Origin: Escherichia coli
Lineage (GTDB): Bacteria > Pseudomonadota > Gammaproteobacteria > Enterobacterales > Enterobacteriaceae
Assembly (NCBI RefSeq): GCF_003334785.1
Contig: NZ_QOWV01000007.1
DNA: 64,000 nucleotides
Reading direction: 5' to 3' (one strand)
A program made the translations under genes and the position numbers. Below the pieces are notes generated by a model that saw nothing but the letters and a program-made list of their open reading frames with translations, made no database searches and had not been told where the DNA came from. Positions 55,712 through 55,824 of this stretch are shown piece after piece; the stretch's first letter is position 1, and the number at the start of each line of letters is the position of its first letter.

Positions 55712-55714
55712 TAT

Positions 55715-55812
55715 GCACTGTCGGATGCGGCGTGAACGCCTTATCCGACCTACGGGTAGTGCGTTTTGTAGGCCTGATAAGACGCGGCAAGCGTCGCATC
55801 AGGCAACCCGCA
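55715..55812. repeat. REP/BIME element pair
   Basis: GTCGGATGCGGCGTGAACGCCTTATCCGACCTAC and GTAGGCCTGATAAGACGCGGCAAGCGTCGCATCAGGC palindromic units read directly between convergent thiQ and yabI. Confidence 0.85.
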
Positions 55813-55824
55813 CAAGACTATCTC

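Follow-up and report, generated by a model that had tools for sequence, protein, structure and literature searches.

The genes thiQ and yabI are convergent, with a spacer of 113 bp (55712-55824) between their stop codons, and the locus raises the question of what occupies this spacer and how it bears on the ends of the two transcripts that meet there. A preliminary description of the DNA had claimed that two oppositely oriented REP palindromes fill the spacer and that, as at yacG/mutT, the REP element stands in for a canonical terminator between convergent genes.

All positions are those of the window, by which we mean the whole 64-kb stretch of E. coli DNA that was analysed. The sequence is K-12-like and runs opposite to that of MG1655: the reverse complement of MG1655 71740-72540 matches window 55400-56200 at 100% identity, and the MG1655 coordinate is given by 127940 minus the window coordinate. 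After this conversion the RefSeq MG1655 positions of yabI (71351-72115) and thiQ (72229-72927) both agree with the ORF list. Over 5 kb there are only 2 base differences from MG1655 (NC_000913.3), at window 56361 and 53318, each with T in the window for C in MG1655 when read on the MG1655 strand, one in yabI (MG 71579) and the other in thiB (MG 74622), and the window is thus K-12-like but not the MG1655 reference itself. The RefSeq MG1655 record has no repeat feature annotated in the spacer, and neither confirms nor names the element. The features of the junction are as follows, the genes and stop codons being from the ORF list and both genes being also in the RefSeq annotation of MG1655.

55013..55711, + strand: thiQ coding sequence (thiamine ABC transporter ATPase, the last gene of thiBPQ)
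55709-55711, + strand: thiQ stop codon, TAG
55712..55719, + strand: 8-nt gap TATGCACT from the thiQ stop to the foot of REP1, predicted to pair with AGUGCGU (55758-55764) and so extend the REP1 hairpin
55720..55753, - strand: REP1, a y-type REP (palindrome 55720-55749, CTAC 55750-55753)
55754..55767, no strand: short linker GGGTAGTGCGTTTT, 14 nt and T-rich, between the GTAG/CTAC ends, the source of the U run on the thiQ mRNA
55768..55804, + strand: REP2, a z1-like REP (GTAG 55768-55771, palindrome 55772-55804, AA/GC stem mismatch, 5-nt loop)
55805..55824, - strand: 20-nt gap from the yabI stop to REP2, where the spacer is least conserved and where about 6% of E. coli genomes have a 12-bp deletion
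55825-55827, - strand: yabI stop codon, TAG
55825..56589, - strand: yabI coding sequence (DedA family membrane protein)

An inverted-repeat search placed the palindrome arms at 55720-55733/55736-55749 and 55772-55785/55791-55804, each arm being 14 nt long and 86% complementary to its partner. On the + strand the first palindrome reads GTCGGATGCGGCGTGAACGCCTTATCCGAC-CTAC and on the - strand the second reads GCCTGATGCGACGCTTGCCGCGTCTTATCAGGC-CTAC, and with these CTAC-ended reads on opposite strands the two REPs point in opposite directions, and their GTAG ends face one another across the linker. Folded in isolation, the hairpins have energies of -18.8 to -21.8 kcal/mol and z = -4.0 to -6.5 against shuffles, and the fold of the whole spacer has z = -4.2 on either strand.

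An E. coli REP is an imperfect palindrome, 30-40 nt long, whose foot is preceded on the 5' side by a conserved GTAG and whose stem has a mismatch of two bases; the types are y, z1 and z2, and REPs are usually paired inversely as BIMEs (PMC3333891). Both palindromes of the spacer are imperfect, 30-33 nt long and tagged with GTAG, which is on the - strand for REP1 (CTAC 55750-55753 on the +) and on the + strand for REP2 (55768-55771), and both have the AA/GC stem mismatch. REP1 read from its GTAG is GTAGGTCGGATAAGGCGTTCACGCCGCATCCGAC and carries the landmarks of y REPs, namely T11, the A12A13/G26C27 mismatch and G32 (Corneloup et al., PMC8266576, whose numbering we use). REP1 matches the first y REP of the yacG/mutT spacer (16362-16395) base for base. 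Its sole difference from what we take to be the y consensus is a compensatory change of the C6-G33 pair to T6-A33. REP2, with its GTAG, AA/GC mismatch, 5-bp upper stem and 5-nt loop, resembles the z1-like copies at 16312-16348 and in the ara array, and we have assigned it to subtype z1 on what we take to be the published consensus. The GTAG-first strand of REP1 is the minus strand, and the thiQ mRNA (+ strand) reads it as an iREP ending in CTAC; the yabI mRNA reads REP2 as GCCUGAUGCGACGCUUGCCGCGUCUUAUCAGGCCUAC.

The pair also shows the high copy number and extragenic location of REP sequences. The tail motif CGYCTTATCMGGCCTAC, allowing up to 3 mismatches, has 16 matches in the 64-kb window where 0.54 are expected, a count reached in none of 100 shuffles, and all 16 are intergenic and fall in three clusters, at yacG/mutT, thiQ/yabI and araA/araD. 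A 157-nt spacer query found a median of 12 places per genome in 5426 complete E. coli genomes. The exact coordinates, the inverted arms, the GTAG tags and the enrichment of the motif bear out the preliminary description as to what fills the spacer. By sequence it is an ordinary REP doublet, in which a short linker of 14 nt joins a y REP to a z1-like REP. It belongs to the group-2 REP family of E. coli, on which the domesticated transposase TnpA_REP (RAYT) acts, and the sequence determinants for binding and cleavage of single-stranded DNA by TnpA_REP appear to be present in the pair. REP/BIME elements of K-12 have been catalogued for decades, and as a typical member with known biology this pair would have little import beyond correct annotation.

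With regard to the established classification of REP/BIME elements (Gilson, Bachellier, Hofnung; Ton-Hoang et al. 2012, PMC3333891), the pair lies outside both main classes. BIME-1 (also RIP/RIB), which has y and z1 REPs, a long L linker and usually an IHF site, is ruled out by the 14-nt linker and by there being no match to the IHF consensus WATCARNNNNTTR within 55712-55824. BIME-2, with y and z2 REPs, a short linker and tandem copies, is ruled out as there is a single pair and REP2 is not of the short z2 form, its upper stem being long and its loop 5 nt, as in z1-like copies. As it fits neither class we have put it with the atypical BIMEs, which are chimeric mixtures of y, z1 and z2 REPs with L or S linkers and usually occur in multiple copies (PMC3333891). 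The thiQ/yabI element, in contrast, is single, and its sequence marks it as a single-copy atypical BIME made up of y, short linker and z1-like REP.

The parallel drawn in the preliminary description with yacG/mutT holds only in part, since both are convergent spacers with REPs, but there are four REPs at yacG/mutT and a long linker with an IHF consensus, as against the 14-nt linker without one at thiQ/yabI. The yacG/mutT spacer (16293-16507) has its REPs in the order z1-like, y, z1-like, y, and its 33-nt long linker carries the IHF consensus TATCAATGAGTTA at 16407-16419, making it BIME-1/RIP-like. The third cluster, at araA/araD, is a tandem BIME array (61108-61533) of about five 85-bp units with 10-11 REPs, and as it sits inside the araBAD operon and not at a convergent junction it is clear that REPs are not specific to such junctions. 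This array is the araD-A BIME that has served as a substrate for TnpA_REP (PMC3333891). The thiQ/yabI linker resembles the short linker of this array (GCGCTGCGATTTT; GCGATTTT before GTAG), and the T run within it is a generic feature of the BIME short linker and not an adaptation specific to this locus.

Two further comparisons concern the identity of the element. The REPINs mobilised by RAYTs (Bertels and Rainey; PMC3116915, PMC3337134) are, like our pair, inverted REP doublets able to form one long hairpin, in a REP family tied to a single-copy RAYT. Unlike in REPINs, the arms at thiQ/yabI are from different REP subtypes, with REP1 and REP2 arms 79-82% complementary to each other, and the minimum-free-energy folds favour two separate hairpins. 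The REP325-derived nucleoid RNA naRNA4 (Rfam RF02564), itself built of REPs, is the sole Rfam family matched, but we have rejected membership as the matches, at 37.1, 34.6 and 29.9 bits, are below the gathering score of 59.5 and reflect generic REP similarity.

We turn now to the ends of the transcripts. A consensus scan of the spacer found no promoter, no terminator match on the minus strand and only one weak terminator-like site, at 55741-55759 on the + strand followed by TGCGTTTTGT, which is made up of the 3' arm of REP1 and BIME linker. In thiQ-sense RNA an extended hairpin is predicted at 55713-55764 (-25.8 kcal/mol), followed by UUUUGU, or UUU-G-U in the feature as delimited (55713..55767, + strand). 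In it a 7-bp lower stem is topped by an internal loop of 8 nt and then by the REP1 stem, and the U run, which has four consecutive U only, adjoins only the lower stem. For E. albertii and the O157-like allele the predicted extended folds are comparable. Given its internal loop and a run of just four U, the predicted structure on the thiQ side is weakly like an intrinsic terminator and is not a canonical one. In yabI-sense RNA the sequence after the REP2 hairpin (-21.3 kcal/mol) is CUACAAAACGC (CUACAAAACGCAC), without a U tract. There is then no canonical intrinsic terminator at the spacer in either direction, and to that extent the preliminary description was correct; that the REPs themselves terminate transcription, as it also implied, is only plausible on the sequence.

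In the Term-seq data of Dar and Sorek (2018, PMC6061677) only a minority of mapped 3' ends lie at annotated REPs, namely 24% of the Rho-dependent and 13% of the intrinsic ones. REPs are resistant to exonucleases and serve as markers of where Rho-dependent transcripts end, mainly by protecting ends after Rho has terminated transcription further downstream (PMC6061677), and of the published models this one suits the thiQ/yabI junction best. Like the REP-stabilised ends described there, the thiQ/yabI junction has a stable hairpin with no proper U tract just past the stop codon, and C-rich untranslated sequence downstream, the latter known at thiQ/yabI from the sequence. The GC skew of the + strand is -0.35 to -0.47 over 55780-56100 and +0.27 to +0.38 over 55620-55740, the latter meaning that C exceeds G on the minus strand. 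Each transcript would then enter C-rich, G-poor sequence once past the spacer, which fits Rho loading although it does not prove it. REP-stabilised 3' ends of Rho-dependent transcripts are reportedly also the subject of Newbury et al. (1987) and Peters et al. (2012).

The reading that we prefer, and hold to be probable with some reserve, is that the REP pair caps both mRNAs, with Rho termination downstream and trimming back to the REP hairpins, possibly some weak intrinsic termination, and an ancient insertion that has been retained. Both convergent transcripts would enter the element and each would first meet a stable hairpin formed by a REP, which is oriented alike in the two RNAs (with CUAC at the 3' side). 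RNA polymerase would mostly run on into the untranslated and C-rich antisense strand of the opposite gene, to be terminated there by Rho, and 3'-to-5' exonucleases would trim the RNA back to the REP hairpin, which would both set and stabilise the steady-state 3' end. For thiQ transcripts it is plausible that the -25.8 kcal/mol hairpin with its UUUUGU also gives some direct but weak termination independent of Rho; the yabI direction has no U tract for it. REP1, being 8 nt past the thiQ stop, would also fall among the REPs reported to stall terminating ribosomes and so lower protein output. The element would have been inserted before the Escherichia species diverged and mostly kept since. Going by the literature and the anatomy of the junction, this is most likely how the pair works, and protection of 3' ends after Rho termination is more likely than REPs acting as terminators, perhaps joined, on the thiQ side, by weak intrinsic termination and a damping of translation.

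The searchable supplements of Adams et al. 2021, of SMRT-Cappable-seq and of the transcriptional-interference paper PMC10349824 hold no 3'-end entries for thiQ/yabI, and in those of Adams et al. no coordinate starting 7211 to 7216 was found for the thiQ/yabI range. The absence of thiQ/yabI from the Term-seq and SMRT-Cappable-seq tables is possibly due to poor expression in the media used.

A comparison of REP content across strains had been proposed in the preliminary description as a check, and it showed that the pair is present in most E. coli and that the junction is polymorphic. The locus is present in all of the 5426 complete E. coli genomes surveyed, and 4453 of them (82%) have a K-12-like spacer, defined by a spacer match covering at least 80% of the query. 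In O157:H7 and relatives REP1 is kept and REP2 largely deleted, an allele found in no more than 384/5426 genomes (at most 7%). The 12-bp deletion between REP2 and yabI is present in 319/5426 (about 6%), and a further 174-177/5426 (about 3%), IAI39 included, have no REP and instead a BoxC/TMECO repeat of about 70 nt. With these four allele classes in complete genomes the junction offers a compact natural experiment on the effects of REPs at a convergent gene pair.

The core of the replacing repeat, CCCTCGCCCCTTTGGGGAGAGGGTTAGGGTGAGGGG, is the same sequence as TMECO no. 7 (PMC4666352, Table 1), which identifies it as a BoxC/PIT intrastrand-triplex repeat. This family has about 15 detectable copies per genome, and none in the 64-kb window. 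Like the REP pair it is a short, GC-rich, intergenic, multi-copy palindromic repeat, and it occupies the same junction in its share of the genomes; unlike the pair it is of an unrelated sequence family without the GTAG tag, and it is reported to be without terminator activity (PMC4666352). The replacement starts at the base after the thiQ stop (the equivalent of window 55712-55812) and was seen in HS4, 2012C-4221, IAI39 and EC556, with a shortened, hairpin-only version in HS4. Two unrelated repeat families thus alternate at the thiQ/yabI junction.

Beyond E. coli, a scan with a degenerate DNA pattern found the same y-linker-z1 pair at the same junction in E. albertii, Escherichia sp. E1V33 and Escherichia sp. 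MOD1-EC7003; the pattern reached these three Escherichia lineages, and missed B2-type E. coli, owing to a codon change, and genera beyond Escherichia. As the pair is common to the three other lineages it was inserted before they separated, and the BoxC allele is probably the derived one. Four-fold degenerate sites are 77% identical in thiQ and 65% in yabI between K-12 and E. albertii, and in the spacer identity runs from 42/42 for the 8-nt gap with REP1, through 12/14 for the linker and 34/38 for REP2, to 11/20 for the stretch adjacent to yabI. E. albertii REP2 (L013 2070-2115) has ATAG for GTAG and two new, non-compensatory stem mismatches. K-12 and E1V33 are identical at 113/113 spacer positions, with four-fold sites at 85% (thiQ) and 80% (yabI). 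The 8-nt gap is identical in E. albertii and E1V33, and in MOD1-EC7003 (L015 5751-5790) the 5' arm of REP1 is deleted. On these comparisons the half of the spacer near thiQ looks constrained and the half near yabI dispensable.

Some caution is needed in reading the E1V33 identity. The longest run of perfect identity between K-12 and E1V33 in about 5 kb is 197 nt (55712-55908); it begins at the first base of the spacer and continues 84 nt into the 3' end of yabI, which tempers the 113/113 as evidence of selection. The E1V33 identity could come from a short recombination tract, or the conservation from conversion among REP copies, instead of from constraint.

It is against this record that we have to consider whether the pair is simply a neutral or selfish remnant, a REP doublet put by TnpA_REP (RAYT) into a permissive 3' spacer and tolerated there while useless to thiBPQ and yabI. 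REPs are mobile and variable by nature (PMC3333891), the junction is polymorphic, with REP2 truncation, the 12-bp deletion and the BoxC/TMECO replacement all present, and the E. albertii and MOD1-EC7003 copies are partly decayed. The pair has nevertheless been kept at the same junction across Escherichia species, with REP1 and an 8-nt flank that is not REP sequence fully identical in E. albertii against four-fold sites at 65-77%, with 41 non-REP spacer positions unchanged in E1V33, and with the non-consensus T6-A33 pair of REP1 retained and showing no drift. We regard a useless remnant as on balance unlikely, while giving it real weight: the better conservation of REP1 and its flank than of four-fold sites argues against the default view of such copies as pure junk, and capping of the two mRNAs, the reading that we prefer, has against it that the pair is dispensable in nature, as judged by REP2 truncation, BoxC/TMECO replacement, loss of a REP1 arm and decay of REP2 in E. 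albertii.

A further reading is a mainly translational role, in which REP1 would block the ribosome terminating at thiQ, leading to mRNA cleavage, tmRNA tagging and less ThiQ. REPs less than 16 nt from a stop codon down-regulate translation, according to Liang et al. (2015) as summarised in PMC12306157. By the distance rule as that summary gives it, REP1, 8 nt past the thiQ stop, is like the translation-regulating REPs of Liang, Rudd and Deutscher, and REP2, 20 nt from the yabI stop, is unlike them and outside the rule. The 8-nt gap is also unchanged in every REP1-bearing sequence examined except MOD1-EC7003, where gap and REP1 5' arm are partly deleted. In contrast the BoxC allele shifts the first hairpin further from the thiQ stop with no apparent harm. 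The RepRanger supplements make no mention of thiQ or yabI. A role of this sort is compatible with capping of the mRNAs, and as the main role of the pair we think it rather unlikely.

That the pair is a true bidirectional Rho-independent terminator is improbable. There are stable hairpins on both strands, the thiQ side has its extended hairpin followed by UUUUGU and the one terminator-like match of the scan, and the overlap of REPs with mapped intrinsic terminators, at 13%, provides a precedent (PMC6061677). However on the yabI mRNA what follows REP2 is CUACAAAACGC, with no U tract, and on the thiQ mRNA the four U adjoin only the 7-bp lower stem, with the 8-nt internal loop between it and the REP stem, and the T run is in any case generic to the BIME short linker.

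We give equally little credence to a more ambitious version of a functional pair, a selected two-sided 3' module in which REP1, its flank and the linker would both throttle termination of ThiQ translation and end or stabilise the thiBPQ mRNA, the pair as a whole would insulate thiBPQ from yabI, and BoxC/TMECO would have taken over the role in about 3% of lineages. If this were true two unrelated repeat families would be functionally equivalent at one junction.

Finally, a DNA-level role as a gyrase or nucleoid-protein site relieving positive supercoiling between the convergent units is suggested by the convergent junction, by the y REP lying beside a short linker and by the binding and cleavage of BIMEs by gyrase, which cleaves y-type REPs far more often than z2-type, at loops and stem mismatches (PMC6379681), but it is a doubtful one, given that the cleavage enrichment was shown for BIME-2 (y and z2 in tandem arrays) and not for a single y and z1-like pair, that the BIME-2 gyrase signal is independent of transcription (PMC6379681), and that the spacer has no IHF consensus.

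There is one minor observation to add on the ends of the two genes. The last codons of thiQ and yabI (55694-55712 and 55817-55835) are mutually complementary over 19 nt at 79%, which may be chance; the complementary stretches bracket the whole BIME and pair in the minimum-free-energy folds, closing the spacer as one domain.
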